Assembly (NCBI GenBank): GCA_020632155.1
Contig: JACKGE010000002.1
Coordinates: 21,293-85,292 of the forward strand
DNA: 64,000 nt
Direction: 5' to 3'
Origin: Candidatus Nomurabacteria bacterium
Lineage (GTDB): Bacteria > Patescibacteriota > Minisyncoccia > Phycocordibacterales > UBA918
The notes beneath the pieces were generated by a model. It had not been told where the DNA came from. It ran no database searches and saw only the letters and a list, made by a program, of their open reading frames with translations. Positions 18,148-58,877 of the stretch are shown here, piece by piece; the stretch's first letter is position 1; each line of letters opens with the position of its first letter. The translations under genes were made by a program, and so were the position numbers.

Positions 18148-18169
18148 TACTGACTAGTTTAGCATGCTG

Positions 18170-19327: not shown

Positions 19328-20343
19328 TACCGCATGGTTACTTTATGTCCTGGCCATCCAAGCGCTTCAAAATGATGATGCAGTGGCGCAATAAGAAGTA
19401 CCTTACGGCCAAAGAACTTTTTACCAAGTATCTGGACCACATTCATAATAACGGTGGCCACCAGTAAGAAACCAACTATAGGCAAAATAGAGACCCCTAT
19501 TCCCTCACCAAGTGCGTCGGTGCTAAACGCCACTACAGTAAGGCTCATGGTGAGAGCCATAATACCGGTCTCAGTCATGTAAAAACGCGCCGGTGGGATG
19601 TTAAACCACAAAAAAGCCAAGATACCACCAACTATGGTCGTACATAGTGCGGCGATGTCGTACTGTTGCTGCAAAAACGCTACGGCACTGTATGATGCAA
19701 AAATGAACATGAAAACGCCGCCGGCAAGACCGTCAATGCCATCAATGACGCTACTCATGTAAACACACATAGCAACAAAAATAAAAAATGGAATGAACCA
19801 GAGGCCGAGCTCTAGCGTGCCAAAGTTGAACAGGCTGACGGCGTGGACCCCAAGCTTTTCGTAGAACCACCACGCAGAGAAAGCGGCCGTTAAGCCAACT
19901 ACCAGAATGCGCTGTGAAAGCGGCAGTCCGCCGGCAAAGTGCTTGCCAGAACCGCGGATAGTGAGAAGGTCATCAAGAAAACCCACCGCGGCACCAATGA
20001 TAAGCGCCAAAAGCGGCAGCCACGTCTGTGATCGACTAAGAAAATTAAGGTTTCCCAGTACGCTGTCCGTAAACAGAACTGATAGTAGCCATAAGGCACC
20101 TGTTGTGAGTAAAATACTGCTCCAAATGACGACACCACCAAGACGAGGAGTATTTGTGTCGGTGTGCTCATGTATCTGGTTGAACAATGGCGTCCCTCCC
20201 CCACCATAACCAGCTACCTTACCGGACTGCTTTTTCCACGCGTGGTGTTTGTATAGATAGTGAGTAACGATAGGGGTAATGGCAATACCAATAAAAAAGG
20301 CTAAAGCGGTTGGCAAAAATACTTTAATTAAAAGTGGTTCCAT
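19273..20343 (-). CDS. mraY: Phospho-N-acetylmuramoyl-pentapeptide transferase
   Basis: MraY-like polytopic protein with the DD..D and HHH motif region (PLHHHFE). Confidence 0.9.
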   Translation of the reverse strand: MEPLLIKVFLPTALAFFIGIAITPIVTHYLYKHHAWKKQSGKVAGYGGGGTPLFNQIHEHTDTNTPRLGGVVIWSSILLTTGALWLLSVLFTDSVLGNLNFLSRSQTWLPLLALIIGAAVGFLDDLLTIRGSGKHFAGGLPLSQRILVVGLTAAFSAWWFYEKLGVHAVSLFNFGTLELGLWFIPFFIFVAMCVYMSSVIDGIDGLAGGVFMFIFASYSAVAFLQQQYDIAALCTTIVGGILAFLWFNIPPARFYMTETGIMALTMSLTVVAFSTDALGEGIGVSILPIVGFLLVATVIMNVVQILGKKFFGRKVLLIAPLHHHFEALGWPGHKVTMRYWVLGFVFAIIGILLALI

Positions 20344-46091: not shown

Positions 46092-47912
46092 TTACTTTTT
46101 AGTAAGCTTCTGAAACAAGTCGATATCGTCTTCAAGAATTTTGAGACCTTCTAAGAAAGTTTCATTTTTACTCATATCAATCCCAATCTTGTTAAAAATT
46201 GTCTCTACATTTGCCGACTCACCCAAAGTAAAGAATGTATCTACTTCCTTTCGATACGAATGATCTTGATGATACCGTTTACGCATAATACTACTGCCTA
46301 TTTCACCAAATGAATACGAATACTGGTAGAAATTGCTGCGATAGTGTACTTTCGTGAATACGGACAATCCATCATCGCGATTCATTTTAATTGCCGGACC
46401 GGCATACTCACCCAGATGTTTGCTAAGTGCGGTAGCCATATCTTGCCAGCTCATACCACCGGCTCGCCGAATAGTTTCGTGCATCTCAAGTTCAAATTTA
46501 AATCGAGAAATACACATGACCATTGTCATTAACCGATCAGCGATGGAGCTGTGCAAAAATGCAAGTTGATCATTTCCAGTTAGATTTGCAATAAGGTGTT
46601 CCGCTAGCAGTGACTCAAAGAAAGTACTGGCAGTTTCTGCCGTTAAAATTGAATGTCCTTCATAGTGAGCTGGTTGCTCCTTGCTCCTATATGCATGTAT
46701 GGCATGACCCATTTCATGAGCTATTGTTCGCAACGAATCAATTGAGTCGTTTTGGTTAAGTAGTATAAGAGTTGGTTTATCAATGCCAGAACTGCAAAAA
46801 GCACCACTACCTTTACCTTTTTTTGGCCAGACATCAATTTGGCTGCTTTCCAGCATCCCATCCAGTATTTTTCCGTACTTTGGGTCGAATCCATAGTACA
46901 CATCACGTACGATTGAAATGGCAGTCTTGAAATCAATAGTCGGGGCTTTTCCAATGGGTTCATTACGGTCTATATACGTGAGGTCTGTACCAAGTAACTT
47001 CTTTTTTAGTTTGAAAAATCGGTTTGATAGTTCGTACCCTTTAGTTTCAATTACTGAAACCAGCCGTTCAAGGGTCTCGTCGCTACTGTCATAGGCGCGC
47101 GTGGTTGCAGAGTAGGGTTTTTTGTATCCACGCAGTTCGTCGTTTGCTTTTTTATCAAGGACAAGGGCGACTAGCTCATTTTCAGCAAACTCTGCTATTT
47201 CTTCCACTACGGGAACAATTTTTTTCCACATCTGATGTCGTTCTTTCCTCGGCAAATTCTCAACCTGCATCATGGCTCCATTCAGTGGTAGCTCCTTGCC
47301 CTTCCACGTAATAGTTCGTTTATTTTGTATTTTTTCTGTAGCAATCATCCACAAACCGCGCGAGGTTTGTGCTTTTAAATTTAATATTTTTTCCTCTGGC
47401 TCAGTCAGCATATATTGTGCATTTTCAAATACACCCTGCAGGTAAAAATGAAGGTTTTTGATTGACGAGTCAGACAACAGTTGCTTCTGTAACGACTTAG
47501 GTAACGTAGCTAGTTCAACATCAAAAAAGATCAGCATGTTTGCAGTTTTCGTCAATCGTTCCTCAATCTTGTTCAGCATTCTCTCTGCTTTTTGATCTTG
47601 CGAATCAAGAACGGTACGGTATGACAAATAGTACGCAACGCGATCACCAGGTAAATGCAAAAGTTTTAGATATTGCCGAACTGCTTTTATAACTGCAGGC
47701 TTAGACTTTTTCCACTGGCCATCATTGTGATTTTGTACAAATTTTTTAATCGCTTGCTCAGTTTTTTTAAGATCTTTTTCAATTTGAAGATCCGCTTCTG
47801 AGTTATAAAAAAAATTACTGAGATCCCACGTCTCTTTGATCTTACCTAACCTCGGTAGCTGATTTACCGGAGTGTATTTAAAAGCGGCTTTCTTTGGTTT
47901 TTTTGACATCAA
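46092..47912 (-). CDS. pepF: Oligoendopeptidase F (M3B)
   Basis: HEMGHAIH zinc-binding HExxH in an M3 context. Confidence 0.85.
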   Translation of the reverse strand: MMSKKPKKAAFKYTPVNQLPRLGKIKETWDLSNFFYNSEADLQIEKDLKKTEQAIKKFVQNHNDGQWKKSKPAVIKAVRQYLKLLHLPGDRVAYYLSYRTVLDSQDQKAERMLNKIEERLTKTANMLIFFDVELATLPKSLQKQLLSDSSIKNLHFYLQGVFENAQYMLTEPEEKILNLKAQTSRGLWMIATEKIQNKRTITWKGKELPLNGAMMQVENLPRKERHQMWKKIVPVVEEIAEFAENELVALVLDKKANDELRGYKKPYSATTRAYDSSDETLERLVSVIETKGYELSNRFFKLKKKLLGTDLTYIDRNEPIGKAPTIDFKTAISIVRDVYYGFDPKYGKILDGMLESSQIDVWPKKGKGSGAFCSSGIDKPTLILLNQNDSIDSLRTIAHEMGHAIHAYRSKEQPAHYEGHSILTAETASTFFESLLAEHLIANLTGNDQLAFLHSSIADRLMTMVMCISRFKFELEMHETIRRAGGMSWQDMATALSKHLGEYAGPAIKMNRDDGLSVFTKVHYRSNFYQYSYSFGEIGSSIMRKRYHQDHSYRKEVDTFFTLGESANVETIFNKIGIDMSKNETFLEGLKILEDDIDLFQKLTKK

Positions 47913-48474
47913 GGATGAAGTTCTTATATTCCGTATAAACGTGATTGAATTCGCTTAGTATAGCGTTTTTAAGGCGACTGTTTAAGACGTTGCTAATGTC
48001 TTGGTACATAAGTGCTCGTTCGTCGAGTTTGCCGCCGAAATCATTGAGATACCGCGCGTGGTCGTCGTAGTATTCTTCCACAATGCAACGCATATTGTGA
48101 ATCTTATCAGCAGCCGCTACCACTAAAGATTCCATTGGCGCTTTTTTGAGCTGCTTCGCGTAGGCTTTTTTTCGGTCCGTCCACGAGTACTGCTTTTCAG
48201 ACGTGTCTTGTGGTTCACTTACCGCTCGCACAAGTTCCAAAACGTGCCCGCCAAAGTCTTCTTGCAGCTCTTCCTCGGTGTAGTCGGTGTCCTCTAACGT
48301 GTCATGAAGTAAGGCCGTAATAATGGTGTCCTCGTCGTCAGTGTAGTCACTTACAATCATGGCAACTGCATACAGGTGTGTAACGTATGGCAGCGGAGCT
48401 GAGCCTTTACGAAGCTGGTCTTTATGTAGTATAGAAGCGGCACGGACTGCTTGTTCAATTCGGTAGGTGTACAT
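47878..48474 (-). CDS. HD-domain (p)ppGpp hydrolase-like protein (RelA/SpoT hydrolase domain only; small alarmone hydrolase)
   Basis: H...HDTLEDT HD signature with RelA/SpoT-type spacing (ALLHDTLEDT). Confidence 0.65.
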   Translation of the reverse strand: MYTYRIEQAVRAASILHKDQLRKGSAPLPYVTHLYAVAMIVSDYTDDEDTIITALLHDTLEDTDYTEEELQEDFGGHVLELVRAVSEPQDTSEKQYSWTDRKKAYAKQLKKAPMESLVVAAADKIHNMRCIVEEYYDDHARYLNDFGGKLDERALMYQDISNVLNSRLKNAILSEFNHVYTEYKNFILDVKKTKESRF

Positions 48475-48483
48475 AATTACAAC

Positions 48484-48900
48484 TTACGCAGCTTTACGGT
48501 GCTCTTCTTGTTTCCGTTGTCGCTCTTCCGCCAGTCGAATATTATCCAGCTCTTGCTGCCTGCTTTGTATTTGAGAGCGCAAAGCATCAACGCGATTTGT
48601 GGCCGTCCTTATTACGCTATTGGTACGAGATATCTTATTTTTGTATTCTGTTTCAAAACGCCTTTCCTCCAGCTCATATTTTTTTTGTAACTGCTGTCGT
48701 TCAATATTAAGTTTTTGTATTTCTGCATCAATTTGCTCAGTCTTTTGGGAAAGTCCAGAACGAAGCTGGTCACTTTCGTTGTGGTAACTGTCTTGCACTT
48801 TACGTAACAACTCATCAGCTTGGCGGCGAGTTTCTTCGGCCTTTTCAAGGTCACGCTGGAGAATGCGTAATTTATTATCATTATCACTTGTTGCGTACAT
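48484..48900 (-). CDS. Hypothetical coiled-coil protein
   Basis: Highly charged heptad-repeat sequence throughout. Confidence 0.4.
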   Translation of the reverse strand: MYATSDNDNKLRILQRDLEKAEETRRQADELLRKVQDSYHNESDQLRSGLSQKTEQIDAEIQKLNIERQQLQKKYELEERRFETEYKNKISRTNSVIRTATNRVDALRSQIQSRQQELDNIRLAEERQRKQEEHRKAA

Positions 48901-49153
48901 GAAAAATATAACCTTCGGCTAGTAATAACTTTTGTTTTGCCAGTATACCACCTCGGTTGTAGCCACCCAGCCCTCCGTCGCTGCGTATAACACGGTGGCA
49001 CGGCACGTCAGGATCATAATTGGCAGCCATGATGCTAGCGACAGCGCGGGCGGCTTTTGGATTACCGGCTTTTATAGCCACCTCCTTATAGGTCATTACT
49101 GAGCCCTTTGGAATCCGGCGCACTACCGCTCTAACTTTTTCGGTAAAGGTCAT
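48884..49153 (-). CDS. MGMT-family protein: 6-O-methylguanine-DNA methyltransferase DNA-binding/active-site domain only
   Basis: PCHRVIRSDGGLGGY signature with the Cys retained. About 90 aa counted from the internal Met; the track ORF 48884-49240 includes a probable 5' over-extension. Confidence 0.6.
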   Translation of the reverse strand: MTFTEKVRAVVRRIPKGSVMTYKEVAIKAGNPKAARAVASIMAANYDPDVPCHRVIRSDGGLGGYNRGGILAKQKLLLAEGYIFHVRNK

Positions 49154-49157
49154 AGGC

Positions 49158-49943
49158 TTACTTTTTGAGTTTATTGTGTAAGTGTAAGAGTTTTTTGCCA
49201 GCCGCTTCGCGGTACGAACAGTACTCACACAGTTCACCACTCGCCGGAATGCCTTCGGTCTCTAGTGTTGTTTTTATCTCGCTCAGTGCTGTTTCTATCC
49301 AACTGACGTCAGTCTCTACCGGCACGAGCGTGGTTTCAAAGATAAGTTTGTCATCAAAGGCATCAAGGTCCTTATCAGCGTTGGCGTAGACTAAATATCC
49401 AGTAGTTGCTACCGTAAAGCCGTTTTGCTCAAGGAGCCAGCGGTATACCCCGAGCTGCCGTGTGTACTGAATTTCCCATGGACTATCGCCAAGCGCTTCA
49501 ATACGCTCAGCTTTTGAGGTCGACTTATAATCAATGATGATAAGAGTTCCGTCGGGTTGTACCCAAATATCGTCTACTGCGCCAGAGACAGTAAGTCCGG
49601 TTGCTTCGTGTGTGTGTTCTATGCCTGCAAAGTTGTCACGCCACACATCTAACTCTGTGTGCGTAAACGGCACTGCGTCGATCTGGTACTTTTCCATGAT
49701 CGGATGTCTTGTTCCCGCTTTTCGGTGAATATCAAATTCCTTCTTAAACAGTTCATCGACAGCGATATTTAGATTGAATGACGGAAAACTTGGCCGTTTA
49801 GTTCCCAGTTTGTTGTCTAAATAAAAACAGCGTGGACACTCAAAAAAGAGGTCGATTTTAGAACGAGACAGGCGCCACTTCGCACCGCCATAGTTCCACT
49901 CACTACTGCGGTCGGGATTATAGCGCTTTTGAAACGTTGCCAT
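49158..49943 (-). CDS. PD-(D/E)xK nuclease, RecB/Cas4-like domain with four cysteines
   Basis: GAVDDIWV...IIDYKS nuclease motifs; N-terminal CPRCFYL (Cas4/AddB-like CPR motif) and C-terminal CEYC. Confidence 0.65.
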   Translation of the reverse strand: MATFQKRYNPDRSSEWNYGGAKWRLSRSKIDLFFECPRCFYLDNKLGTKRPSFPSFNLNIAVDELFKKEFDIHRKAGTRHPIMEKYQIDAVPFTHTELDVWRDNFAGIEHTHEATGLTVSGAVDDIWVQPDGTLIIIDYKSTSKAERIEALGDSPWEIQYTRQLGVYRWLLEQNGFTVATTGYLVYANADKDLDAFDDKLIFETTLVPVETDVSWIETALSEIKTTLETEGIPASGELCEYCSYREAAGKKLLHLHNKLKK

Positions 49944-50010
49944 ACGTGTAGCAGTATACCATGCACAAAAAAAGCCCTAATCGGGCCTTTTTCGTTTTAA
50001 ACAAGTACGC

Positions 50011-50565
50011 TTATTCAGCTGTAAAAGTTTCAAATGTTCCCTCTATCTGTGAGTCCGTAGCAAGGTCAAACTTTCGGTCCCCATTCTCGGTAAAGAAGAC
50101 CACTGCGTACTGTCGTCCAGTCACTGTTGGCGCCAGTAGTTCTACTGACTCAGGAATGAGACCCTGTGACTTGCTATACCGCGCAGCACCAAGAATATTG
50201 CCAAGTGCTCCGTCTGAGTAAGAACGTACTGCGATCCAGCCGTCTTCGGTTGGGAAGGTTGCGCTGTCAATGGTTACACTACGACCAGCAGTTTGATCGG
50301 AAACACCGATCTTACCGTCACCCACCACCATTTCTGGTGCCGTATCGCTGGCTGTGTCAGACTTCATACTATCTGACGAGTCTTTAGTATTTGAATCATC
50401 ACTTGTGTGGTCAGTCATCTCCGAGTCAGTATCAGTACTGTCTTCGTGAGCGGGTGAATCAGCCGGAGTTCCGGAAAAGATCCACACTAGTAAACCACCG
50501 ATCAAGAGACCAGCCACGAATGCGACTACGGTCTTCTGACTCTCTTGTTGTTCTTGTTCTGACAT
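50011..50565 (-). CDS. Membrane-anchored protein with an acidic Ser/Thr/Asp-rich linker and a C-terminal globular domain
   Basis: N-terminal TM helix; DSTDTDSEMTDHTSDDSNTKDSSDS low-complexity region. Confidence 0.4.
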   Translation of the reverse strand: MSEQEQQESQKTVVAFVAGLLIGGLLVWIFSGTPADSPAHEDSTDTDSEMTDHTSDDSNTKDSSDSMKSDTASDTAPEMVVGDGKIGVSDQTAGRSVTIDSATFPTEDGWIAVRSYSDGALGNILGAARYSKSQGLIPESVELLAPTVTGRQYAVVFFTENGDRKFDLATDSQIEGTFETFTAE

Positions 50566-50621
50566 ATCTAAATACAGAATTGCGCTAAATTGTGACTAAT
50601 ATACTGCCTAGTATAGCAAGT

Positions 50622-51449
50622 CTACGAGCCCCCACACAGTTGACGAGCCTCGGAAAGTACTGCCTCGGTCTTACGCTGTGAAAGATGTAGATGTCGCAAT
50701 ATTTGGGGCCGTTCAAGGAGATCGCGGCACACAATCACACTACGCTTTAATAAAGCCGCTTTTTGGGCACTAGAGAGTGACTGAATGACCGTAATTGGGT
50801 ACAATCCAGCCGCTTCAATACGGTCTTGCAGGTTATTGGTGCGCGGATAATCCCAGCCCAAAAGCTGCAATCCGACACAAGTAGCGTACTTTTCAGCGGT
50901 TGAGGTGAATTTTGTATTAGTGACCACCAAAAAGTCTATAATGCCACAAGTGTCATCTTTACACACAGCTTTATTTTCAAGATCGAGTTTGCGGGCGTAC
51001 GAGTACATAACCACTTGTAAGTCAGACTTGATACCTGGGCGGGCATGAAACTTGGCTTCCGCGATAAACGTATGGTCAGGTCGGTACGCAGCCACATCAA
51101 GTTCATGAATCGCACATTTCCCCTTTAGGGTTAGGCGGGTTCGTGTTTTATAGCCCTCAATCTCAAACAACCGTGCCAAAAAATCTTCAAACGGAAAACC
51201 AGTTGGCCCAAGACCAAACAGAGCGCGCCGCAGTGAGTACTTGGCGGCGGTTGGTGATTCACTACTGCGCAAAAGTTCAAACGCCCGCGCATAGATAACC
51301 TGTGTGGTCATGCCATCAAACAGCTCGTCTTCTACCTGTTTGACGATATGCTCAACCTCATCTCGGTTAGCACCGGCTTTCTTGAGAGAGTTTCGTAATT
51401 TGTTTGGTCTAAAGGCTTCAGTCGTTCCGTCAGCTTTCGTAATTTTCAT
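50622..51449 (-). CDS. ATP-cone domain fused to a restriction-endonuclease-like (Mrr-cat/PD-(D/E)xK) domain
   Basis: N-terminus MKITKADGTTEAFRPNKLRNSL... is ATP-cone-like. Central FEDFLARLFEIEGYKT...ELDVAAYRPDHTFIAEAKF has a D...E.K layout typical of Mrr-cat. Confidence 0.5.
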   Translation of the reverse strand: MKITKADGTTEAFRPNKLRNSLKKAGANRDEVEHIVKQVEDELFDGMTTQVIYARAFELLRSSESPTAAKYSLRRALFGLGPTGFPFEDFLARLFEIEGYKTRTRLTLKGKCAIHELDVAAYRPDHTFIAEAKFHARPGIKSDLQVVMYSYARKLDLENKAVCKDDTCGIIDFLVVTNTKFTSTAEKYATCVGLQLLGWDYPRTNNLQDRIEAAGLYPITVIQSLSSAQKAALLKRSVIVCRDLLERPQILRHLHLSQRKTEAVLSEARQLCGGS

Positions 51450-51472
51450 GGTCGGCTATGGTGTTATGGCTA

Positions 51473-52540
51473 TTACGCAATGATACCACCTCCAAGACAT
51501 TGATCTCCTTGATAAAACACAGCTGACTGCCCACTAACAGGTTGTTCTGCAGTGTTAGGTAGACTAACAGTAGATTCAGGCGTGCCAATGGTTACCTGTG
51601 CTCGGTGGGGTTTTTGTCGATACCTTGTCTGTACCTCAAGAGTGTTTGCTGTCGGCATATTTGGTATCCAATTACAGTCTGTCAAATGAATATCTTTGTC
51701 GACCACCGCTGCAGTAGGCGCTGTTTTGCTCACAATCAAGGTGTTTTTTTGTACATCTTTTTTGACTACGAAGTAAGGTGTACGCGCGTTGTCAGTGCTG
51801 CTGATCGTAAAGCCATGGCGCTGACCAATGGTATACACCAAAGCCCCCTTGTGGACCCCAATGTGTTTGCCGCTCGTGTCATACACCAGCCCTTCTTTGA
51901 GCTCCGTAAAATGTGACAAAAACTCAGGGATATCGATATGTCCCAAAAAACAAACACCCTGACTGTCTTTTTTTTGAGCAACTGGCAACTTCGCACGCTC
52001 GGCTTCTTTTCGAATAGTGGCTTTATTACTCTCCCCTACTGGAAGCAGGGTTTTGGACAGCTGTGTTTGCGTCAGTGTCCACAAAAAGTAACTTTGATCT
52101 TTTTCGGTGTCATTACCGCGCCAGAGCTGGTAACCAGCATTCGTGGTTCGTTTTTGTGCGTAGTGACCAGTTGCAATGTAGTCGGCGCCGTGCTGAGTCG
52201 CAAATTCAAGGAAACGACCAAACTTCACGTATTGGTTACACATCACGTCCGGATTAGGTGTTCTGCCGGCCAGATATTCCGCAATAAAGTGATCAGCAAC
52301 ATCTTGTTTATATGCTGTTTCGGCGTCACAGGTCAAAAACGGTATCTGTAGGTGAGCTGCTACTCGCATCGCATCTAGGCGCTCTTGTTCCCAGTTGCAC
52401 TGTACAAAATCAGGCTGCCAAACTTTAATAAAGACTCCGACTACCTCATATCCCGCTTGTAAGAGACGTAAAGCAGCGACCGAGGAGTCGACCCCGCCTG
52501 AAAGGCCTACAAATACGCGTTTTTGAGTGCTCCGTTTCAT
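51473..52540 (-). CDS. mnmA: tRNA-specific 2-thiouridylase
   Basis: PP-loop VGLSGGVDSSVAA and a MnmA-like C-terminus. Confidence 0.9.
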   Translation of the reverse strand: MKRSTQKRVFVGLSGGVDSSVAALRLLQAGYEVVGVFIKVWQPDFVQCNWEQERLDAMRVAAHLQIPFLTCDAETAYKQDVADHFIAEYLAGRTPNPDVMCNQYVKFGRFLEFATQHGADYIATGHYAQKRTTNAGYQLWRGNDTEKDQSYFLWTLTQTQLSKTLLPVGESNKATIRKEAERAKLPVAQKKDSQGVCFLGHIDIPEFLSHFTELKEGLVYDTSGKHIGVHKGALVYTIGQRHGFTISSTDNARTPYFVVKKDVQKNTLIVSKTAPTAAVVDKDIHLTDCNWIPNMPTANTLEVQTRYRQKPHRAQVTIGTPESTVSLPNTAEQPVSGQSAVFYQGDQCLGGGIIA

Positions 52541-52560
52541 AGCATGGAGCCTACCATGGC

Positions 52561-53538
52561 TTACTTTAGATAGCGAGCGATGTTGGCATTGTGTTCATGT
52601 AGCGTCTCTGCGTAGTAAAAGTTACCGTCCGTGCCGGTGATGTAGAACAAATATGGCGAAGGCTCGGGAAATAAAACCGCCTCAATTGCCGTCAGGCCAG
52701 GGTTTCCGATCGGCGTTGGTGGTAACCCTTTGTACAAGTACGTATTGTACGGACTGTCTATTTTAAGATCCTCGGGTGTCAATTCTTTAAGAGGTTTTTC
52801 AAGCACATACTCCATCGAGGCATCAACTTGGAGCGGCATACCAAGATTCATGCGAGACAGTAGGATGCCAGCGACCATGCGCATTGACTCAGGGCTATTC
52901 GCTTCACGCTCTACAATTGAGGCTAATGTAATGAGACCTTCTTCGGTTAGGTAATGCGTCGTAAGTTCGGTGCGCAAAGTCGCAGTTTTTTGTTGATAGG
53001 CTTCACGCAAAAGCACAATGAGTTCATCGGCGGTGTAGCTTTCAGGCACGAAGTACGTATCCGGAAATAAAAACCCCTCGTAACCACGTGCTTGTTCGTA
53101 GAAATATTCTGCATCAAAGTCAGGTAATTCCTCTGAGGCTAGCAGAGCGTACTCACGCACTGAATACCCTTCCGGAAACGTGAGCGAGACCAATTCCGCT
53201 TGTGGTACATCGTGTGACAAACGGTTCGCAACCTCAAACACATTCATTGGCTCAGAAAAGGCATATGCTCCTGCCTTAATGTCAGACGGATCGTGCAAGA
53301 AAACAAGTACCATATAAAGAATGGTGCCGCTTCGTACAACATGTGCAGTTTGTGCAGCGTCAGCTATGGCTGAGGCGGAAGAACCGGAAGTAATGTCAAA
53401 GCTTTGATCTGTTGGAAAGGACCGCGGCGCACTAGTAAAGTACGCAAAAATTAGTACCACTCCTAGCAATACCAAAAACAAACTTACAGCAACTAATTGC
53501 CATTTTTTACGCGGTGGTTTTTCTACTTCAGGGGGCAT
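52561..53538 (-). CDS. mltG: Endolytic murein transglycosylase MltG (YceG family)
   Basis: N-terminal TM helix and YceG-like domain (LTFPEGYSVREYA...). Confidence 0.8.
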   Translation of the reverse strand: MPPEVEKPPRKKWQLVAVSLFLVLLGVVLIFAYFTSAPRSFPTDQSFDITSGSSASAIADAAQTAHVVRSGTILYMVLVFLHDPSDIKAGAYAFSEPMNVFEVANRLSHDVPQAELVSLTFPEGYSVREYALLASEELPDFDAEYFYEQARGYEGFLFPDTYFVPESYTADELIVLLREAYQQKTATLRTELTTHYLTEEGLITLASIVEREANSPESMRMVAGILLSRMNLGMPLQVDASMEYVLEKPLKELTPEDLKIDSPYNTYLYKGLPPTPIGNPGLTAIEAVLFPEPSPYLFYITGTDGNFYYAETLHEHNANIARYLK

Positions 53539-53541
53539 ACA

Positions 53542-54942
53542 CTACAAAGGTAATTCTCCAGTTGGTAGATTCGCTGGCGCTTCGCCACGGGTTGAACCGA
53601 CACGTGTGAGCGTTGGTGTCTGAGCTACCTGACCCGGTAAGTGAAACATGGTGGCGAGCTCCTCGACAGTAAATATTCTTGGGGAGTCGATACCGCATTT
53701 TGGAAAATACTTGCGCATTTTGTACTCTTTGAGTTCTTGTTTTCTGAGTGCATTTAAAGCTTTGACCTTACCGCCAGGAATAATGTCTTTGTAGTCAAAA
53801 TCCGTACGCCAACGAACACCAATGGCGTTTCTTGTATTGACGTCATATTGACTGAAAGAACGAATGATAGGATTGATGAGGTCACTGTTAAATCCCCCTT
53901 GATGATTTATGTACACCCACCGAATCGCACCTTTGTAGGCATATTTATCGGCATTACGTTCCAACGTCATGATGGTATCGCGCTCACCTGAAGTCAAGCG
54001 AGCCATTTCTTCTGTTTCTCCAGCTGCAAGTGGAGTGCGTTTTTCAGGGTCACGGTTCATTAATTTATTTATGTACTTAAACAGGTCATCCGACCAATTT
54101 GGACCTTCACCTAAGAGTAGCTGTCCATTCTTGAAACTATCACGTCGAAATGACTTGATGAGTATTTGCATGTATATACGCTCGTGCTGTTTGATACTAC
54201 CAAACACCTCCAGCATTGGTGTCATAGGGTCAAGCTTCTCCTCTTCTTTAGGTAGTTTATCAAGCCCATAGTCGATATATGTCTTAATTGGTAAAAAGCC
54301 GTCTTTCTTTTTACCCATGTGAACTGAAAAAACAGTTGTTTTACTGGGATCAAAACTAATTGGTACTTCACCTGCGTAATCTACTGGCTCTTCTATGATC
54401 TCCACTCCGGGGTACTGTGCGTACATATTGGCTTCAAATGCATCCCGTGTCTTTTTGGTCGGAACATTTACATAGAATCGTACTTCCCCGCCGATGGAAA
54501 CAATCTCTAATGAAAAGTCTAACGGTCTTTTTCCATCAAGATAGGTTTGCATCAAGTTATCAGGATTGGCGACATTATGTATTTGTGCCAGAACAAACTC
54601 CATCGCTTCAGGCGATTTAAACACCTCTTGCGGTGGAATAATACGCAATGTAGTACGACCTTGATTAGCCCAAAACTTTTTCCCCACTGCTTCGTCCCAC
54701 TTGCTAAAAAAAACTAAAAATAAGACTACCGGTAGCCAGATTGGTAGTAAAAAGATAAAAAACGAAAACGCATCAGCTGCAGATACACCAAAAAGAAAAA
54801 AGCCAAGTAAAATCAAAAAGAGATCAATGATGATCATCATTGGCCCGTAGTCCATGTCATTGTCGTCCATCCATGAAAAAACAGACGCTAAGATTGGTAC
54901 TTCCATTGTCAGTCTATTGTACAACACAAAACCAGCTGACAC
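53542..54942 (-). CDS. Hypothetical membrane protein (2-3 N-terminal TM helices plus a large soluble domain)
   Basis: ORF with hydrophobic N-terminus; no motif recognised. Confidence 0.4.
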   Translation of the reverse strand: MSAGFVLYNRLTMEVPILASVFSWMDDNDMDYGPMMIIIDLFLILLGFFLFGVSAADAFSFFIFLLPIWLPVVLFLVFFSKWDEAVGKKFWANQGRTTLRIIPPQEVFKSPEAMEFVLAQIHNVANPDNLMQTYLDGKRPLDFSLEIVSIGGEVRFYVNVPTKKTRDAFEANMYAQYPGVEIIEEPVDYAGEVPISFDPSKTTVFSVHMGKKKDGFLPIKTYIDYGLDKLPKEEEKLDPMTPMLEVFGSIKQHERIYMQILIKSFRRDSFKNGQLLLGEGPNWSDDLFKYINKLMNRDPEKRTPLAAGETEEMARLTSGERDTIMTLERNADKYAYKGAIRWVYINHQGGFNSDLINPIIRSFSQYDVNTRNAIGVRWRTDFDYKDIIPGGKVKALNALRKQELKEYKMRKYFPKCGIDSPRIFTVEELATMFHLPGQVAQTPTLTRVGSTRGEAPANLPTGELPL

Positions 54943-54976
54943 GTTTGTGTCAGCTGGTTTCTCTGGAAAAGTTTAC

Positions 54977-56008
54977 TTACTCAACGAGCATGTATGAACC
55001 GTTGGAAAGCCGTTTGAAAATGTTGGTGTCTTGTAGGTTGACCACAATAGTGTTGTCTTTGACGTAGCGCTCTTTACGAACCTTGTCGATAATTTCTTCA
55101 CGGGTAAGCGGGCCGTTCTTTTCAAGAATTTCGCGCAAGACATCTTTTACGACACCAGCAGAGTATCCCCATTCAGAAAGTGCGTAAAGACCGCGGCCAA
55201 CCAGTACAAAGCGCTCATCCTTAATGAGTTCGTTGTGGGTTGTGGCGGTGTGTGCTTTTTTGCCAAAAAGCTCGTTAATAGCCCCTGCTACTTCTCGGAA
55301 GTGCATTGGAGAGCCGTGGCGCTTTACTGCCAAGTACGCATAATCGCGAATGCCTTTAACGCGAACATTTGGGCTTTCGGCATGACCCCACTCACCAAGT
55401 GGATTATTAGTGATCTCTTTAGAAATAGTAAGCCAGCGCTTTAGTATCTGCTCATCGTATTTGTCAGCAATATCAATAAGTTGATCTCGGAAGCGAGCTA
55501 GGACTTCTTCTTCGGAAATAAGCTCGTCAGCAGCGAGGGACTGGTATACGTTCTTAAGGGCCTTTTCCACCGTCTCCGCTATTTTCTTTTCTGTGTACCA
55601 GCGATGTGCGTAGGCATTGTTTTCTTTGTTACGGTAAAACGGACTACCAAGGACTAGCAGGAAGTAAATGTGATTGCGGGTTGCTTGATCTTTCGTCAAG
55701 CTATCAAGCAGTTCATGTTCAGCGATAAGCCCACCGCCAAGTGAGACAATGGCTTCCTGAAGCTCGTCAAAGACGGATTGAAACTCGCTGTATACATCTG
55801 ACTTTTGAATAGACTGAATGCCGTAGTTCTCGATTTGACGCACTCGCTCACGTGTAATGCCGTAGGTCTGGCCAATGGCCTCTAGTGTATACGTCTCAGT
55901 TTCTTTACCAAGCCCGTAGCGCTTTTCAAGCACATCACGAGCACGCTCAGGAAGAGCGGCCAGTAGTTTTTTGGTTACTTGTTTTGGTTTAAACGTAATC
56001 ATAATCAA
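54977..56008 (-). CDS. Protein with an N-terminal sigma-70 region-4-like HTH followed by a ~250-aa domain of unknown function
   Basis: LPERARDVLEKRYGL...TLEAIGQTYGITRERVRQIENYGIQSI matches sigma70 region 4.2; regions 2 and 3 are absent. Confidence 0.5.
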   Translation of the reverse strand: MIMITFKPKQVTKKLLAALPERARDVLEKRYGLGKETETYTLEAIGQTYGITRERVRQIENYGIQSIQKSDVYSEFQSVFDELQEAIVSLGGGLIAEHELLDSLTKDQATRNHIYFLLVLGSPFYRNKENNAYAHRWYTEKKIAETVEKALKNVYQSLAADELISEEEVLARFRDQLIDIADKYDEQILKRWLTISKEITNNPLGEWGHAESPNVRVKGIRDYAYLAVKRHGSPMHFREVAGAINELFGKKAHTATTHNELIKDERFVLVGRGLYALSEWGYSAGVVKDVLREILEKNGPLTREEIIDKVRKERYVKDNTIVVNLQDTNIFKRLSNGSYMLVE

Positions 56009-56102: not shown

Positions 56103-58877
56103 CTAATCACTGGTGATGATGTTAAGAATGCGGCCCGGTACGTAAATGACTTTTCCAATGTTTTTATCAACTAAATACTTTTGGATGGAAGATTGTCCCT
56201 TGGCAGCAAGCAGCGCCTCTTCTTCACTAACATCAGGGGCAAGTTCGATAGCGCCACGCATTTTGCCATTTACTTGAACACCAATGGTGACCACGTCATC
56301 AATGGCCAGACTCGGGTCAGCAACTGGGAACTCTTCTAAGTGGACTGAGTTTGTCTTTCCTGCTTCGTGCCACAGTTCTTCAGTAAGGTGGGGCGCAAAC
56401 GGGGCGAGTGACTTAAGGAACATCTCGTAACTTTTTTTTGCAAGACCTTGTTTTTCTACTAAGTTCACAAACTGCATCATGGCACTAATCGCGGTATTGA
56501 ACTTGTACAGCCGTATGTCTGTGCGTAGTTTAAGAATGGTTTTATGTAGAGCTTTAGTTACTTCACTGTTTTCTGTTTCAACAAAATGTTCATGAAGGCC
56601 GTTAACACGCTCTAAAAAGCGACGAATGCCGGCAATGCCACCCATGTCCCACGGGTAGTTAGCCACCTCGCCGTACGGACCCATAAACGCAAGGTACATT
56701 TTTACGCTATCGGCACCCACTCTACTCACCTGCTCATCAGGATCAATGACGTTGCCTTTACTTTTACTCATCTTGTTTCCGTCTGGCCCTAGGATGAGTC
56801 CGCGATTGATACGCTTCGCGTATGGCTCATCGTCAACAACAAGACCAAGGTCAAACAGTGCTTTCTGCCAAAATCGAGAGTACAACAGGTGCATGGTTGT
56901 GTGTTCTGCTCCGCCAAAGTAGATGTCGATCGGCATCCATTTTTTTTGCTGCTCAAGTGCAGACAGTGCGTCAGTGTTCTCGTTATCAATGTAGCGCAAA
57001 AAATACCACGATGAGTCTACAAACGTATCGAGTGTCTCCACTTCTGGTGTCCAGCCAGCACCGAATAACTTTTCAGTACGCTCTTTTAGTTCTTTGCTTT
57101 TAGCCAGCGGAGCTTCTCCGGTTGGCTTAAAATCAACATCACTTGGCAACGTCCACGGCAGGTGTTCTTTTGGCACAGCGTGCGGCTTCCCTTCTGGATC
57201 GTAAACGATTGGAATCGGCACACCCCAGTACCGTTGTCGTCCTACCGACCAGTCGCGTAAGCGGTACGTGCTCGTCATACGGCCACCGACTTTTTTCACA
57301 ATAGCCTCTTTGGCATCTTCTGAGCTCATGCCGTCAAATTCTTCGGAGTTGTGTAATACACCGAGATCTGTATTAAAAGCCTTCTTTCCATGTAACGCCT
57401 CAAGGAGAACTCGAAGAGAGTCTGCCAAGTTATCTCTTTCAAGTAATTCTTCAATTGTTAATTCGAGAACAGCCTCACCTTCGTGCAATACGTAGTTACT
57501 TTGAATATCACTAAAATGCGTCGCTGAGATATAGCAGTCTGACTTTACTGAAGGATATGTATATGAACCGACGGCATCATATCCACGCAAATCAATCTCA
57601 AGTTCTTCGTTAATCTCTCTGACTACTGCACTTAGGACATCCTCGTCATTCTCAATTGCACCACCAAAAAGACCGATCTTCCCAGAATTTGTTTTTGCAT
57701 CTAAGTCTCGTAACTGCCAGAGAAATGTTCCAGGCTTGTCTTTTACTTCAAGTAACGCACCTGAGTGTGTAATTTTCTGAGGAGCAACAACTGACTTGAT
57801 CGCAATTCCGTATTTTTGTGCAAACGTAAAGTCTCGTTCATCGTGCGCTGGAACTGCCATAATGGCGCCAGTGCCATAAGACGCAAGTACATAGTCAGCA
57901 ATAAATACTGGTATTTCTTCATTGTTGGCTGGATTTGTAGCTGTGATACCTTCAAGCCGTACACCTGTTTTCTCCTTAGTGGCATCAAGTCGGTCTTGTT
58001 CGTTTTTTTGTGTACTTAGTACGATATATCGTACTACTTCGTCCCAGTTTTGTATCTGTTTCTTGTTCTTTTCCAAAAGTGGGTGCTCTGGCGCTAAGAC
58101 CATATAGGTAGCGCCAAATAGTGTGTCTGGACGCGTGGTAAAGACTGTCACGTTGTCACCAGTTGATAGTTTGAAGTCGATCTCAGCTCCTTTAGAGCGG
58201 CCGATCCACCTCCGCTGTGCTTCTTTGATGTGTTCTGGCCAATCAACCTTTTCGAGATCGTCTACCAAACGATCAGCGTAATTAGTGATACGGAGCATCC
58301 ACTGCGGCATTTCTTTTTTCTCAATAACGTCACCACTCCGTTCACAGGTACCGTCAGCCAAAACTTGTTCATTAGCAATAACGGTGTTACACCCTGGGCA
58401 CCAGTTGACTATACCTTTGCCACGAAACGCTATATCGTTTTCAAAAAACTGCGTAAACATCCACTGTGTCCATTTATAGTAGTCTTCATCGGTAGAACTC
58501 GTAGTTTTGTCCCACGAAAAGGCATTGCCCATGCTCTTAAGTTGGTTCTTCATGTGAGCAATATTGCTCTCGGTCCACGTCCGTGGGTCAGTATCGCGCT
58601 TAATGGCCGCATTTTCGGCTGGTAGACCGAATGCATCAAAACCCATTGGATACAAAACTTGTTTTCCTTGCATGCGCTGAAAACGTACATAAATATCAGG
58701 CACGGCAAAAGCGTGCCAGTGGCCAATATGGAGGTTTCCTGAAGGATATGGCCACTCCACCAGTACGTACTCTTTTTCTTTGTTTGTATCACGCTGTCCT
58801 ACTTCGTAGAGCTTTTGTTCCTCCCAAAGTTGTTGCCATTTCTGCTCAATAGCGGCAGCGTCGAACTTTTTATGCAT
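56103..58877 (-). CDS. leuS: Leucyl-tRNA synthetase
   Basis: PYPSGNLHIGHWHAF (HIGH) and KMSKSKGN motifs; 924 aa. Confidence 0.95.
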   Translation of the reverse strand: MHKKFDAAAIEQKWQQLWEEQKLYEVGQRDTNKEKEYVLVEWPYPSGNLHIGHWHAFAVPDIYVRFQRMQGKQVLYPMGFDAFGLPAENAAIKRDTDPRTWTESNIAHMKNQLKSMGNAFSWDKTTSSTDEDYYKWTQWMFTQFFENDIAFRGKGIVNWCPGCNTVIANEQVLADGTCERSGDVIEKKEMPQWMLRITNYADRLVDDLEKVDWPEHIKEAQRRWIGRSKGAEIDFKLSTGDNVTVFTTRPDTLFGATYMVLAPEHPLLEKNKKQIQNWDEVVRYIVLSTQKNEQDRLDATKEKTGVRLEGITATNPANNEEIPVFIADYVLASYGTGAIMAVPAHDERDFTFAQKYGIAIKSVVAPQKITHSGALLEVKDKPGTFLWQLRDLDAKTNSGKIGLFGGAIENDEDVLSAVVREINEELEIDLRGYDAVGSYTYPSVKSDCYISATHFSDIQSNYVLHEGEAVLELTIEELLERDNLADSLRVLLEALHGKKAFNTDLGVLHNSEEFDGMSSEDAKEAIVKKVGGRMTSTYRLRDWSVGRQRYWGVPIPIVYDPEGKPHAVPKEHLPWTLPSDVDFKPTGEAPLAKSKELKERTEKLFGAGWTPEVETLDTFVDSSWYFLRYIDNENTDALSALEQQKKWMPIDIYFGGAEHTTMHLLYSRFWQKALFDLGLVVDDEPYAKRINRGLILGPDGNKMSKSKGNVIDPDEQVSRVGADSVKMYLAFMGPYGEVANYPWDMGGIAGIRRFLERVNGLHEHFVETENSEVTKALHKTILKLRTDIRLYKFNTAISAMMQFVNLVEKQGLAKKSYEMFLKSLAPFAPHLTEELWHEAGKTNSVHLEEFPVADPSLAIDDVVTIGVQVNGKMRGAIELAPDVSEEEALLAAKGQSSIQKYLVDKNIGKVIYVPGRILNIITSD

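Follow-up and report, generated by a model that had tools for sequence, protein, structure and literature searches.

What does a protein do that joins the allosteric nucleotide sensor of ribonucleotide reductases (RNRs) to a nuclease? The question is raised by a gene in a 64,000-nucleotide stretch of a Candidatus Nomurabacteria contig (hereafter the window), for which a first-pass annotation proposed a nucleotide-gated nuclease and pointed to defence effectors that use the same logic. The gene is a 275-aa open reading frame on the minus strand, running from an ATG at 51449 to a stop at 50622–50624, and its product is 100% identical to an NCBI entry named 'ATPase [Candidatus Nomurabacteria bacterium]' (P0001). 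We confirm that the protein comprises an ATP-cone, an AF1548-type PD-(D/E)xK nuclease and an AF1548-like C-terminal domain, and we give about an even chance to the view that it is a nuclease gated by adenine nucleotides and serving the regulated turnover, salvage or repair of nucleic acids, with its gating, substrate and role all inferred.

Domain architecture and catalytic residues

The gene and its parts are as follows.

50622..51449, minus strand: ATP-cone/AF1548-type nuclease gene, whole, stop included
51222..51449, minus strand: ATP-cone, aa 1–76 (Pfam PF03477 and Foldseek)
51189..51221, minus strand: cone-to-nuclease connector, aa 77–87 (...LFGLGPTGFPF), ending at the catalytic-Glu helix
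50838..51188, minus strand: PD-(D/E)xK nuclease core of AF1548 type, aa 88–204 (PDB 1Y88)
51051..51098, minus strand: catalytic motif D118-x12-E131-A-K133, aligned to AF1548 D38/E51/K53
50622..50837, minus strand: AF1548-like C-terminal domain, possibly helix-hairpin-helix (HhH)-like, aa 205–275 (Pfam PF22357)

AlphaFold models the whole protein very confidently (pLDDT 95.7, pTM 0.91). An ATP-cone had been proposed for the N-terminal ~90 aa, a call that a failure to match ATP-cone profiles would have undone. PF03477 matches aa 1–76 above threshold (E = 1.6e-10, 41.8 bits against a curated cut-off of 25.8; profile positions 1–84 of 88), and the modelled strands (2–4, 10–12) and helices (15–24, 29–42, 49–61, 67–78) form the N-terminal beta-hairpin capping a four-helix bundle that defines the ATP-cone fold, superposable on the cones of RNR and NrdR. 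Foldseek retrieves the cones of E. coli, human and Aquifex RNR, of NrdR and of L. blandensis NrdB (probability ~1.0, E 2e-3 to 1e-2). Across 69 diverse homologues (34–76% identity), our conservation set, K5 and G8 of the cone are invariant and K17, S21, T49 and Y71 are at least 90% conserved. In the family profile alignment, K5, G8 and K17 fall on the K-x-x-G...K positions of the NrdD and NrdR cones, and the cones of NrdA, NrdD and L. blandensis NrdB share the PF03477 family, the fold and these hairpin and helix-1 residues (Lys, Gly, Lys), but are joined to an RNR subunit rather than to a nuclease. Judging from these residues, the cone likely binds nucleotide; our mapping of its contacts leans on K9, K21 and T55 of E. 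coli NrdA, which we take to be the corresponding positions. The hairpin motif is K-A-D-G here rather than the K-R-D-G canonical in RNR cones, with Ala or Ser at the Arg position, so the ligand could differ from ATP/dATP. E. coli NrdR, which has structures with ATP/dATP bound, likewise has no Arg after the hairpin Lys.

The rest of the protein resembles AF1548 of Archaeoglobus fulgidus, a structural-genomics protein (1Y88), to which aa 90–275 align at 35% identity (phmmer E = 2e-33; family profile E = 3.4e-53). With the whole model, Foldseek ranks 1Y88 first (E = 2.5e-15; TM 0.80 normalised on the target), then RNR and NrdR cones, together with Mrr-type, MspJI and Can2 nuclease domains. AF1548 shares the nuclease core and the C-terminal domain but has no ATP-cone, the alignment beginning only at our residue 90, and lacks the Paceibacteria insertion that bears C163 and C168, two of the protein's four conserved cysteines (the others being C112 and C191). 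For AF1548, our literature searches returned fold-level predictions only, of a restriction-endonuclease-like function with D38, E51 and K53 as the catalytic residues (PMC1874628, PMC1821046).

Those three residues align with D118, E131 and K133, all of which lie within the motif ELDVAAYRPDHTFIAEAKF that had been read as PD-(D/E)xK-type. That reading was sound, and its catalytic triad shows no degeneration, as the residues are kept in 69 of 69 homologues. Eight positions of the domain are invariant in this set (E88, E116, D118, E131, K133, R153, D156 and N178), and the persistence of E88, D118, E131 and K133, with E116, down to 34% identity is the signature of retained catalysis. The catalytic residues are thus intact, and nuclease activity is predicted. 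The description 'Mrr-cat-like' holds in that the domain is restriction-endonuclease-like and several relatives pass the Mrr_cat (PF04471) cut-off, such as P0201 at 33.5 bits, but the protein itself reaches only 16.3 bits against a cut-off of 21, over aa 84–121. Mrr, MspJI and AspBHI belong to the same clan, with MspJI the second-best structural match; they differ from this protein, which has neither a modification-reading domain nor a restriction context. 'AF1548-like' is therefore the better label, for a protein of the same broad group that we do not call a member of Mrr_cat. With neither a cone mismatch nor a degenerate triad, a nucleotide-gated nuclease remains the best mechanistic reading.

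A third domain, absent from the first-pass annotation, follows the nuclease. PF22357 (AF1548-like_C) matches aa 217–271 (E = 1.5e-7, 31.8 bits against a cut-off of 23.9), and the domain modelled in isolation reaches a pLDDT of 88. After 1Y88, its fold matches are HhH-type DNA-binding modules (the RAD51-paralogue N-domain, the Pol kappa/iota thumb, Hel308 domain 5, BAF and Pol beta; query-normalised TM 0.5–0.67, at non-significant E > 1), a weak but consistent indication that the domain may be HhH-like. XPF, Mus81 and Hef have a restriction-endonuclease-fold nuclease followed by tandem HhH, the same order as here; Pfam and Foldseek gave no sequence match and no significant structural match to ERCC4-type nucleases, and we do not claim membership.

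The most conserved stretch of the protein is the eight-residue linker at aa 80–87, with a mean pairwise identity of 0.80 against 0.32–0.40 for the three domains. Within the connector, G81, G84 and F87 are invariant in the homologue alignment and P82 is at least 90% conserved. We count this near-invariance as support for a coupling, inferred from the alignment, between cone and nuclease.

Family and gene neighbourhoods

The fusion is no chance match, since the full-length architecture is common to 5,333 homologues and, at E ≤ 1e-30, to 421 or more clusters at 50% identity. They occur in CPR, Bacteroidota, Acidobacteriota, Planctomycetota and Chlamydiota. An NCBIfam search with the protein returned only sub-threshold matches to the NrdR and NrdA cones and no named family; in databases, several members are called 'restriction endonuclease', and one in IMG 'transcriptional regulator NrdR family protein/Holliday junction resolvase-like'. 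Our literature searches (ATP-cone with nuclease or restriction endonuclease, AF1548, 1Y88) returned no paper on the fused family and no biochemical study of its members. Planctomycetota members carry an N-terminal HC2-like extension, which we do not use as evidence because 280-aa forms share the 90% cluster and start-codon miscalls are likely.

In the window, the gene has as neighbours an HD-protein gene and the following.

51473..52540, minus strand: mnmA, tRNA 2-thiouridylase (Pfam tRNA_Me_trans, E = 1.4e-70), directly upstream
50011..50565, minus strand: DUF7282 protein, acidic in part and with a hydrophobic helix at its N-terminus (PF23951, E = 7.3e-7)
49158..49943, minus strand: PDDEXK_1/Cas4-like nuclease (PF12705, E = 1.2e-15), downstream neighbour
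48884..49240, minus strand: MGMT-type DNA-binding domain protein with a PCHRV motif (PF01035, E = 8e-28)

The gene had been described as standing alone next to a secreted acidic protein. That neighbour is the DUF7282 protein, with its hydrophobic N-terminal helix and acidic region, but the gene has more company than that: mnmA lies 23 nt upstream of it, and both are part of a deeply conserved same-strand block. The order sigma-like/unk466/mltG/mnmA/GENE/(DUF7282)/PDDEXK_1/MGMT/HD, in a block that also contains pepF, places the gene identically in 72 of 80 related Paceibacteria genomes and was seen again in metagenome loci. Upstream, mnmA adjoins the gene in 72/80 loci; the PDDEXK_1 gene lies downstream on the same strand in 65, separated by the DUF7282 gene in 57 and directly adjacent where that gene is missing; and an MGMT gene is present in 50. 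Median identity is 59% for the ATP-cone/nuclease protein, 56% for MnmA and 46% for MltG. These observations are best explained if the gene belongs to the chromosomal core of Paceibacteria (CPR) and is inherited vertically, outside defence islands, although the synteny may owe more to a general conservation of gene order than to function. A promoter and terminator scan around the gene gave counts no higher than in shuffled sequence and so is uninformative on operon structure.

Outside Paceibacteria, the orthologue is often the first gene of stress/nucleotide-catabolism or energy-limitation operons. A beta-CASP nuclease gene lies directly downstream in 19 loci (8–100 nt away in 16 distinct metagenome or assembly loci, and also in Winogradskyella and on two plasmids), and 141 neighbouring open reading frames include 32 Usp, 10 beta-CASP and 6 Hsp20 proteins. 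A four-gene cassette (GENE/MBL-beta-CASP/thymidine-phosphorylase-family/Prs) is present in Criblamydia, Pontibacter and one further locus (L090), and partially in Aridibacter. In B. diazoefficiens, an MBL/Prs/TP trio (bll3115–3117) is induced by microoxia and is listed in the core microoxic proteome (PMC6515984, Table 2). The beta-CASP partners carry the 'RNA specificity' RMMBL domain, which makes RNA a possible substrate. In about a dozen non-CPR loci, the gene sits beside unrelated genes (Cu/heavy-metal ATPases, an ABC-2 transporter, NhaA, MgtC, gyrB), and the surroundings of four further divergent representatives, all short contigs of mixed gene content, added nothing to the cassette. Flavobacteria-type loci have an open reading frame of ~133 aa upstream of the gene, with faint eRF1/baeRF matches (E 0.02–0.26); the paper that defines the baeRF families makes no mention of an ATP-cone, beta-CASP or Usp neighbourhood.

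A search of the 64-kb window for beta-CASP, TP-family, Prs, Usp and P-type ATPase partners found none, and as a rule the Paceibacteria gene has no beta-CASP, TP or Prs partner beside it. Any role drawn from them is therefore transferred from distant orthologues (36–44% identity).

Proposed function and its rivals

We propose that the cone (aa 1–76) would act as an adenine-nucleotide sensor, as in RNRs and NrdR, and that the connector (aa 77–87), which leads straight into the helix that holds the catalytic glutamate, E88, would couple it to the nuclease. The nuclease core (aa 88–204) would cut nucleic acid, most likely as a metal-dependent endonuclease with DNA as the probable substrate, and the C-terminal domain (aa 205–275) would, if HhH-like, resemble modules that hold double-stranded nucleic acid by its backbone. 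By analogy with RNRs and NrdR, the cone could switch the nuclease on binding ATP, dATP or a related adenine nucleotide, through a change in conformation or oligomeric state. NrdR itself changes oligomeric state with ATP/dATP, and a similar logic is likely here, to judge from that precedent. The resulting role would be nucleic-acid turnover, whether nucleotide and pentose salvage or repair-linked cleavage, tuned to adenylate or dNTP state. In the operons of other phyla, the next gene encodes a beta-CASP nuclease, and in some of them genes for a thymidine/AMP-phosphorylase-family and a PRPP-synthetase-like enzyme come after it.

A DNA-repair endonuclease, structure-specific or damage-linked, with its nuclease and HhH-like module in the order of XPF/Mus81/Hef-type enzymes and working with the PDDEXK_1 and MGMT neighbours, would use the cone to tie cutting to the dNTPs needed for repair synthesis. 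This rival overlaps with our proposal in mechanism and differs in role. It draws on the frequency of both neighbours in Paceibacteria, on dATP sensing as the classical function of ATP-cones and on the resemblance of the C-terminal domain to HhH modules of RAD51 paralogues, Y-family polymerases and Hel308. That resemblance is non-significant, however, and the neighbours of non-CPR members are stress and catabolic genes rather than repair genes. Because genes with unrelated housekeeping roles (mnmA, mltG, the sigma-like gene and pepF) share the block, the adjacency of PDDEXK_1 and MGMT may be historical, and we regard a dedicated repair role as rather unlikely.

The first-pass suggestion of a defence effector fares worse. 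Here the nuclease of an anti-phage or abortive-infection system would be released when infection perturbs ATP/dATP pools. In joining a sensor of small nucleotide ligands to a PD-(D/E)xK nuclease, the protein recalls Can2, Card1 and Cdn1 of type III CRISPR systems, whose nuclease domains are among our fold matches, although weakly so (7bdv, 9u49, 8z4i; E 3e-3 to 1e-2); those effectors, however, sense cyclic oligoadenylates through a CARF domain and are CRISPR-associated, whereas we saw no CRISPR or defence context in the window or the related loci examined. Planctomycetota copies do lie near an SNF2/NOV_C helicase or near a BrxC-like fragment and a PLD gene, and one Bacteroidota copy is carried by an integrative element (ICE, with RteC and a transposase), but the latter sits inside a copper-resistance island, not a defence island. 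None of the 5,027 PADLOC models (PADLOC-DB v2) matched at E ≤ 10; searches of 50,697 phage records and of IMG/VR turned up no homologue; and among 72,556 plasmids, just 2 carried the gene. With its fixed position and a conservation equal to that of mnmA, the gene is unlike the patchy, fast-evolving genes of defence, and its neighbourhoods are a housekeeping block in Paceibacteria and often stress/nucleotide-catabolism operons elsewhere. The product of this conserved Paceibacteria core gene looks like a nuclease under the control of nucleotide status rather than an anti-virus weapon, and we consider defence improbable.

Very improbable, in our estimate, is a non-catalytic, nucleotide-sensing regulator analogous to NrdR, with a nuclease fold and an HhH-like domain that serve only to bind DNA, repressing or activating genes according to ATP/dATP. 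NrdR does show that an ATP-cone can control DNA binding: it, too, couples a cone to a nucleic-acid-binding module, its cone is among the fold matches (9fvr, 9fxk, 7p37), and the family profile of our protein aligns to NrdR cones. One member bears an NrdR-type name in IMG, and genes that lead operons are often regulators. Yet the domain order is reversed, since our protein begins at the cone hairpin and has no zinc ribbon; at 14 bits, it falls far short of the 124.65-bit cut-off of the NrdR model TIGR00244; the output of NrdR is its DNA-binding ribbon, whereas the output here is predicted to be a nuclease; and the invariant catalytic residues speak against a fold kept only for binding. An ordinary restriction endonuclease, Type II or Mrr-like Type IV, is scarcely credible despite the database names of members, the relatives above the Mrr_cat threshold and the MspJI and AspBHI fold matches, as the gene is a vertically conserved core gene, has no adjoining DNA methyltransferase or specificity gene in the window or the related loci examined, and encodes an ATP-cone in place of the target-recognition domain (such as SRA-like or winged-helix) of Type IV enzymes.

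A possible route of nucleic-acid breakdown under an ATP-cone

The nucleotide-gated nuclease may have a more specific role, which we put forward tentatively as a possibility short of likely. Energy charge or dATP, sensed by the cone, could switch the enzyme that opens a programmed pathway of nucleic-acid catabolism conserved across phyla, in which the endonuclease would feed a beta-CASP exonuclease, then a nucleotide or nucleoside phosphorylase and finally the pentose phosphates. Free-living bacteria would induce this pathway under hypoxia or stress, and Paceibacteria would have retained the enzyme as a core housekeeping gene. Paceibacteria are reported to lack de novo nucleotide synthesis, and they are thought to live on scavenged nucleotides; their enzyme could meter the digestion of scavenged or own DNA or RNA by ATP/dATP.

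The domain architecture, the intact catalytic residues, the size of the family and its gene contexts define a large, conserved group in which a cone is joined to an intact nuclease, and this group would bring nucleic-acid degradation within the range of the ATP-cone sensor. The characterised ATP-cones known to us, and those that our literature searches returned, serve only as allosteric switches of RNRs and of their repressor NrdR; if the catabolism reading is true, the regulation of an enzyme by an ATP-cone would for the first time reach beyond ribonucleotide reduction and its repressor. It would also supply a function for 1Y88, a structure orphaned for 20 years. Culturable hosts of the family in which genetics is possible include Pontibacter, Winogradskyella, Myroides, Sphingobacterium and Criblamydia, and the family makes it directly testable how nucleic-acid breakdown is coupled to energy or dNTP status.

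Domain architecture and catalytic residues

The ATP-cone nuclease is encoded by a 275-aa ORF with an ATG start and a TAG stop and is 100% identical to P0001, an NCBI record named 'ATPase [Candidatus Nomurabacteria bacterium]'.

50622-51449 (-): ATP-cone nuclease, 275 aa
aa 1-76: ATP-cone, Pfam E=1.6e-10, 41.8 bits versus a cut-off of 25.8
aa 217-271: AF1548-like_C, Pfam 31.8 bits versus a cut-off of 23.9
50940-50963 (-), aa 163-170: Paceibacteria-specific insertion in the nuclease domain

The first-pass annotation read the protein as an ATP-cone fused to an Mrr-cat-type nuclease, and both domains are real, the N-terminal cone clearing its Pfam cut-off. The nuclease part of that reading stands, but its Mrr_cat label does not (16.3 bits versus 21 in Pfam); an AF1548-type nuclease fits best. 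Residues 90-275 match the Archaeoglobus fulgidus protein AF1548 (PDB 1Y88) at E=2e-33 in a search of PDB sequences, rising to 3.4e-53 with a family profile. The nuclease motif originally singled out holds D118 and E131-A-K133, which align in HMMER to D38/E51/K53 of AF1548, the PD-(D/E)xK catalytic residues according to structure-based prediction (PMC1874628, PMC1821046). The C-terminal AF1548-like_C domain is a third, beyond the two first described. The protein belongs with ATP-cone proteins, the PD-(D/E)xK superfamily and AF1548-like_C, and it fell outside Mrr_cat (the target itself), NrdR, the PADLOC defence models and a restriction-modification context.

Conservation is strong, with a mean column identity of 72% among 31 close homologues (62-76% identity). 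In a broader alignment of 69 sequences (34-76% identity), K5 and G8 of the cone hairpin and G81, G84 and F87 of the connector are invariant, as are E88, G110, E116, D118, E131, K133, R153, D156, N178, W199, P202 and P218; K17, S21, T49, Y71, C112, H115, Y149, T177 and C191 are at least 90% conserved. Far from being degenerate, the catalytic set (E88, D118, E131 and K133) is, to judge from this alignment, constrained family-wide, a point in favour of a working enzyme. The cone retains the Lys-x-x-Gly hairpin and the helix-1 Lys, both aligning with NrdD and NrdR. The Arg that follows the Lys in cones of ribonucleotide reductases (RNRs) is Ala or Ser in this family, which is no argument against nucleotide binding because E. 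coli NrdR likewise has no such Arg and was solved with ATP/dATP bound. The connector (aa 80-87, LGPTGFPF) runs straight into the helix starting at catalytic E88 and is the most conserved stretch, with a mean pairwise identity of 0.80, compared with 0.36 (cone), 0.40 (nuclease) and 0.32 (C-terminal domain); such strong conservation suggests that the cone and the active site are mechanically coupled. The insertion at aa 163-170 carries C163 and C168; both are invariant in the 31 close homologues, and neither AF1548 nor other phyla have them. Together with C112 and C191, which are conserved family-wide, this pair might make up a metal or disulfide site.

An AlphaFold2 model built from 69 diverse homologues reached a pLDDT of 95.7 and a pTM of 0.91, and this high pTM implies that the three domains are packed in a defined arrangement. 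The top Foldseek match in the PDB was 1Y88 (E=2.5e-15, TM 0.80 normalised on the target), followed by the Mrr-type catalytic domains of MspJI and AspBHI, by the ATP-cones of E. coli, human and Aquifex RNR, NrdR and L. blandensis NrdB, and later by VC1899 and the CARF-nucleases Can2 and Cdn1 (E about 1e-3 to 1e-2). No solved structure in this search combined an ATP-cone with a nuclease. Modelled alone (pLDDT 88), the C-terminal domain matched 1Y88 first and then consistently helix-hairpin-helix (HhH) DNA-binding modules, including RAD51-paralogue N-domains, Pol kappa/iota thumbs, Hel308 domain 5, BAF and Pol beta, at query-normalised TM 0.5-0.67 and with E>1 in all, a lead that it is HhH-like and probably duplex-binding. 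We hold the three-domain architecture and catalytic competence with high confidence.

Core-gene context in Paceibacteria

The window is a stretch of housekeeping chromosome (LeuRS, AlaRS, an AspRS-type synthetase, DnaK, FtsW and M17 peptidase). The gene had been described as standing alone; it in fact starts 23 nt downstream of mnmA, inside a one-strand block of ten genes. mnmA itself is preceded by mltG and by the genes for an unknown 466-aa protein and a Sigma70_r4 + HARE-HTH protein, and 3' of the target follow, in order, a DUF7282 protein, a PDDEXK_1/Cas4-like nuclease, an MGMT-type protein, an HD_4 protein and PepF.

46092-56008 (-): block sigma-like/unknown 466-aa/mltG/mnmA/ATP-cone nuclease/DUF7282/PDDEXK_1/MGMT/HD_4/pepF
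54977-56008 (-): 343-aa sigma-like protein, Sigma70 region 4 + HARE-HTH domain
53542-54942 (-): 466-aa protein, no Pfam match, between the sigma-like gene and mltG

Block genes in 80 related loci (GTDB species representatives), with median identity to the window protein where determined
Gene; loci; median identity
ATP-cone nuclease; query; 59%
mnmA, upstream of target; 72/80; 56%
mltG; 69/80; 46%
unknown 466-aa protein; 66/80
PDDEXK_1; 65/80; 66%
sigma-like protein; 63/80; 74% (61 related loci), the most conserved of the block
DUF7282; 57/80
MGMT; 50/80

Paceibacteria keep this order even where the nuclease is only about 40% identical, and it was seen again in metagenome loci. Given the recurrent gene order and a median identity like that of mnmA, the target looks, at the level of sequence comparison, like a core gene that is passed on vertically and kept under purifying selection.

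Two further observations concern the wider window. The 924-aa leucyl-tRNA synthetase has a NUDIX match at aa 378-459 (PF00293, 28 bits versus a cut-off of 21.1) directly after its editing domain, an unusual insertion. An isolated AT-skew spike (+0.265 versus about -0.1 elsewhere) coincides with a minus-strand FtsW/RodA membrane-protein gene and is probably a codon-composition effect.

56103-58877 (-): leucyl-tRNA synthetase
18001-20000: AT-skew spike

Family spread and contexts in other phyla

Among 5,333 homologues from a word-indexed search, the best 120 all measure about 275 aa and have identical Pfam domains. An exhaustive search of 1.84 billion representatives gave 1,175 clusters with E<=1e-3, of which 421 reached E<=1e-30; of its best 150, nearly all have 265-300 aa and align over their full length. 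Named members occur in Paceibacteria/CPR (Nomurabacteria, Kaiserbacteria, Zambryskibacteria and Wolfebacteria), Bacteroidota (Myroides, Sphingobacterium, Winogradskyella and Pontibacter), Acidobacteriota (Aridibacter), Planctomycetota and Chlamydiota (Criblamydia), under names such as 'ATPase', 'ATP cone domain-containing protein', 'restriction endonuclease' and 'hypothetical'. The family lacks an NCBIfam model, and literature searches on it found no paper. Three Planctomycetota proteins (P0201, P0290 and P0291; 462-522 aa), which share a 90% cluster with the 280-aa P0287, carry a Lys/Ala-rich histone-H1-like (HC2) extension ahead of the ATP-cone that may be real or a start-codon miscall.

Outside Paceibacteria, recurrent operons in stress islands pair the gene with a second nuclease and with nucleotide-salvage enzymes. 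The gene directly downstream, on the same strand, encodes a beta-CASP metallo-beta-lactamase nuclease (Lactamase_B + Beta-Casp + RMMBL) at 16 distinct metagenome or assembly loci, in a Winogradskyella marina isolate and on one plasmid each of Criblamydia sequanensis and Pontibacter actiniarum, after a gap of about 8-100 nt (548 nt at locus L146). On these two plasmids and at loci L090 and L091, the ATP-cone nuclease opens a cassette of four abutting or overlapping genes, followed by a metallo-beta-lactamase (MBL)/beta-CASP hydrolase, a thymidine phosphorylase (TP)-family protein and ribose-phosphate pyrophosphokinase (Prs). Aridibacter has a variant (ATP-cone nuclease gene, LGT, TP-family gene, Prs), and the Criblamydia cassette lies between acetate kinase and the pair phosphoketolase and glycogen phosphorylase (glgP). 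The 64-kb window encodes none of the partners in this cassette.

L174 7001-11608; L175 1972-6597; L090 6001-10673 (metagenome contig): four-gene cassette
L142 5127-5528; L149 3913-4323; L158 5507-5914; L167 5478-5936; L170 5517-5918; L171 5516-5956: ~133-aa ORF
L081-L085 3868-9045: identical copies of homologue P0179

In Bradyrhizobium diazoefficiens, the trio of cassette partners (MBL hydrolase bll3115, Prs bll3116 and TP-family protein bll3117) is microoxia-induced and belongs to the 'core microoxic proteome' (protein log2FC 2.9/4.4/2.1; transcript FC 15.4/7.7/5.1; PMC6515984 Table 2).

Flavobacteria-type loci have 3-5 tandem Usp genes, a ~133-aa ORF, the ATP-cone nuclease, beta-CASP and Hsp20; among 141 neighbour ORFs at 19 non-CPR loci, 32 were Usp, 10 beta-CASP and 6 Hsp20. 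The conserved ~133-aa ORF, immediately 5' of the nuclease in these operons, has the motif GGSGT...GGPQD and faint eRF1_2 and baeRF matches alone (E 0.02-0.26). Identical copies of P0179 occur in Myroides, Sphingobacterium and other Bacteroidota in an ICE copper-resistance island (RteC, CusB, P-type ATPase and multicopper oxidase), where a GAPDH-like and a DeoC/FbaB-like aldolase gene immediately precede them. Heavy-metal P-type ATPases are another neighbourhood of family members, Planctomycetota members lie near an SNF2 helicase or PLD gene, and further loci have assorted unrelated neighbours.

A candidate nucleotide-gated nuclease

We infer that the target is a ligand-gated nuclease with the ATP-cone as its sensor. 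The cone would bind ATP, dATP or a related adenine nucleotide, and a resulting change of conformation or oligomeric state would gate the nuclease, as in RNR and NrdR; we judge such gating reasonably probable. The HhH-like domain would hold duplex DNA, and RNA is kept as a possible substrate because the beta-CASP partners carry RMMBL.

Can2, Card1 and Cdn1 share the logic of a sensor joined to a PD-(D/E)xK nuclease, but their sensor and context differ. The defence-effector role implied by the first-pass annotation finds no support. The target matched no PADLOC model, no relative was found in phage (tblastn, 50,697 records) or in an IMG/VR scan, and plasmid carriage is rare (2 of 72,556 plasmids). 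Because these results stand beside a fixed housekeeping context with core-gene synteny in Paceibacteria and the gene contexts in other phyla, a dedicated anti-phage role is unlikely, although individual lineages may differ.

Among other known systems, AF1548 is the closest relative, without a cone and with no known function; NrdR and RNR have the cone alone in common with the target, Mrr/MspJI the catalytic fold alone and XPF/Mus81 the domain order alone. The fusion is already visible in databases, though uncharacterised.

The putative adenine-nucleotide-gated nuclease could serve regulated nucleic-acid turnover feeding nucleotide and pentose salvage, or repair-linked cleavage, in either case tuned to energy or dNTP status. 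We hold the whole reading, a gated nuclease for nucleic-acid turnover, with middling confidence, and the salvage or turnover role taken by itself is tentative. Far from being confined to this window, the gene belongs to a large family that is both strongly conserved and experimentally untouched, and the hypothesis is a clear one that can be tested, since some hosts are culturable.
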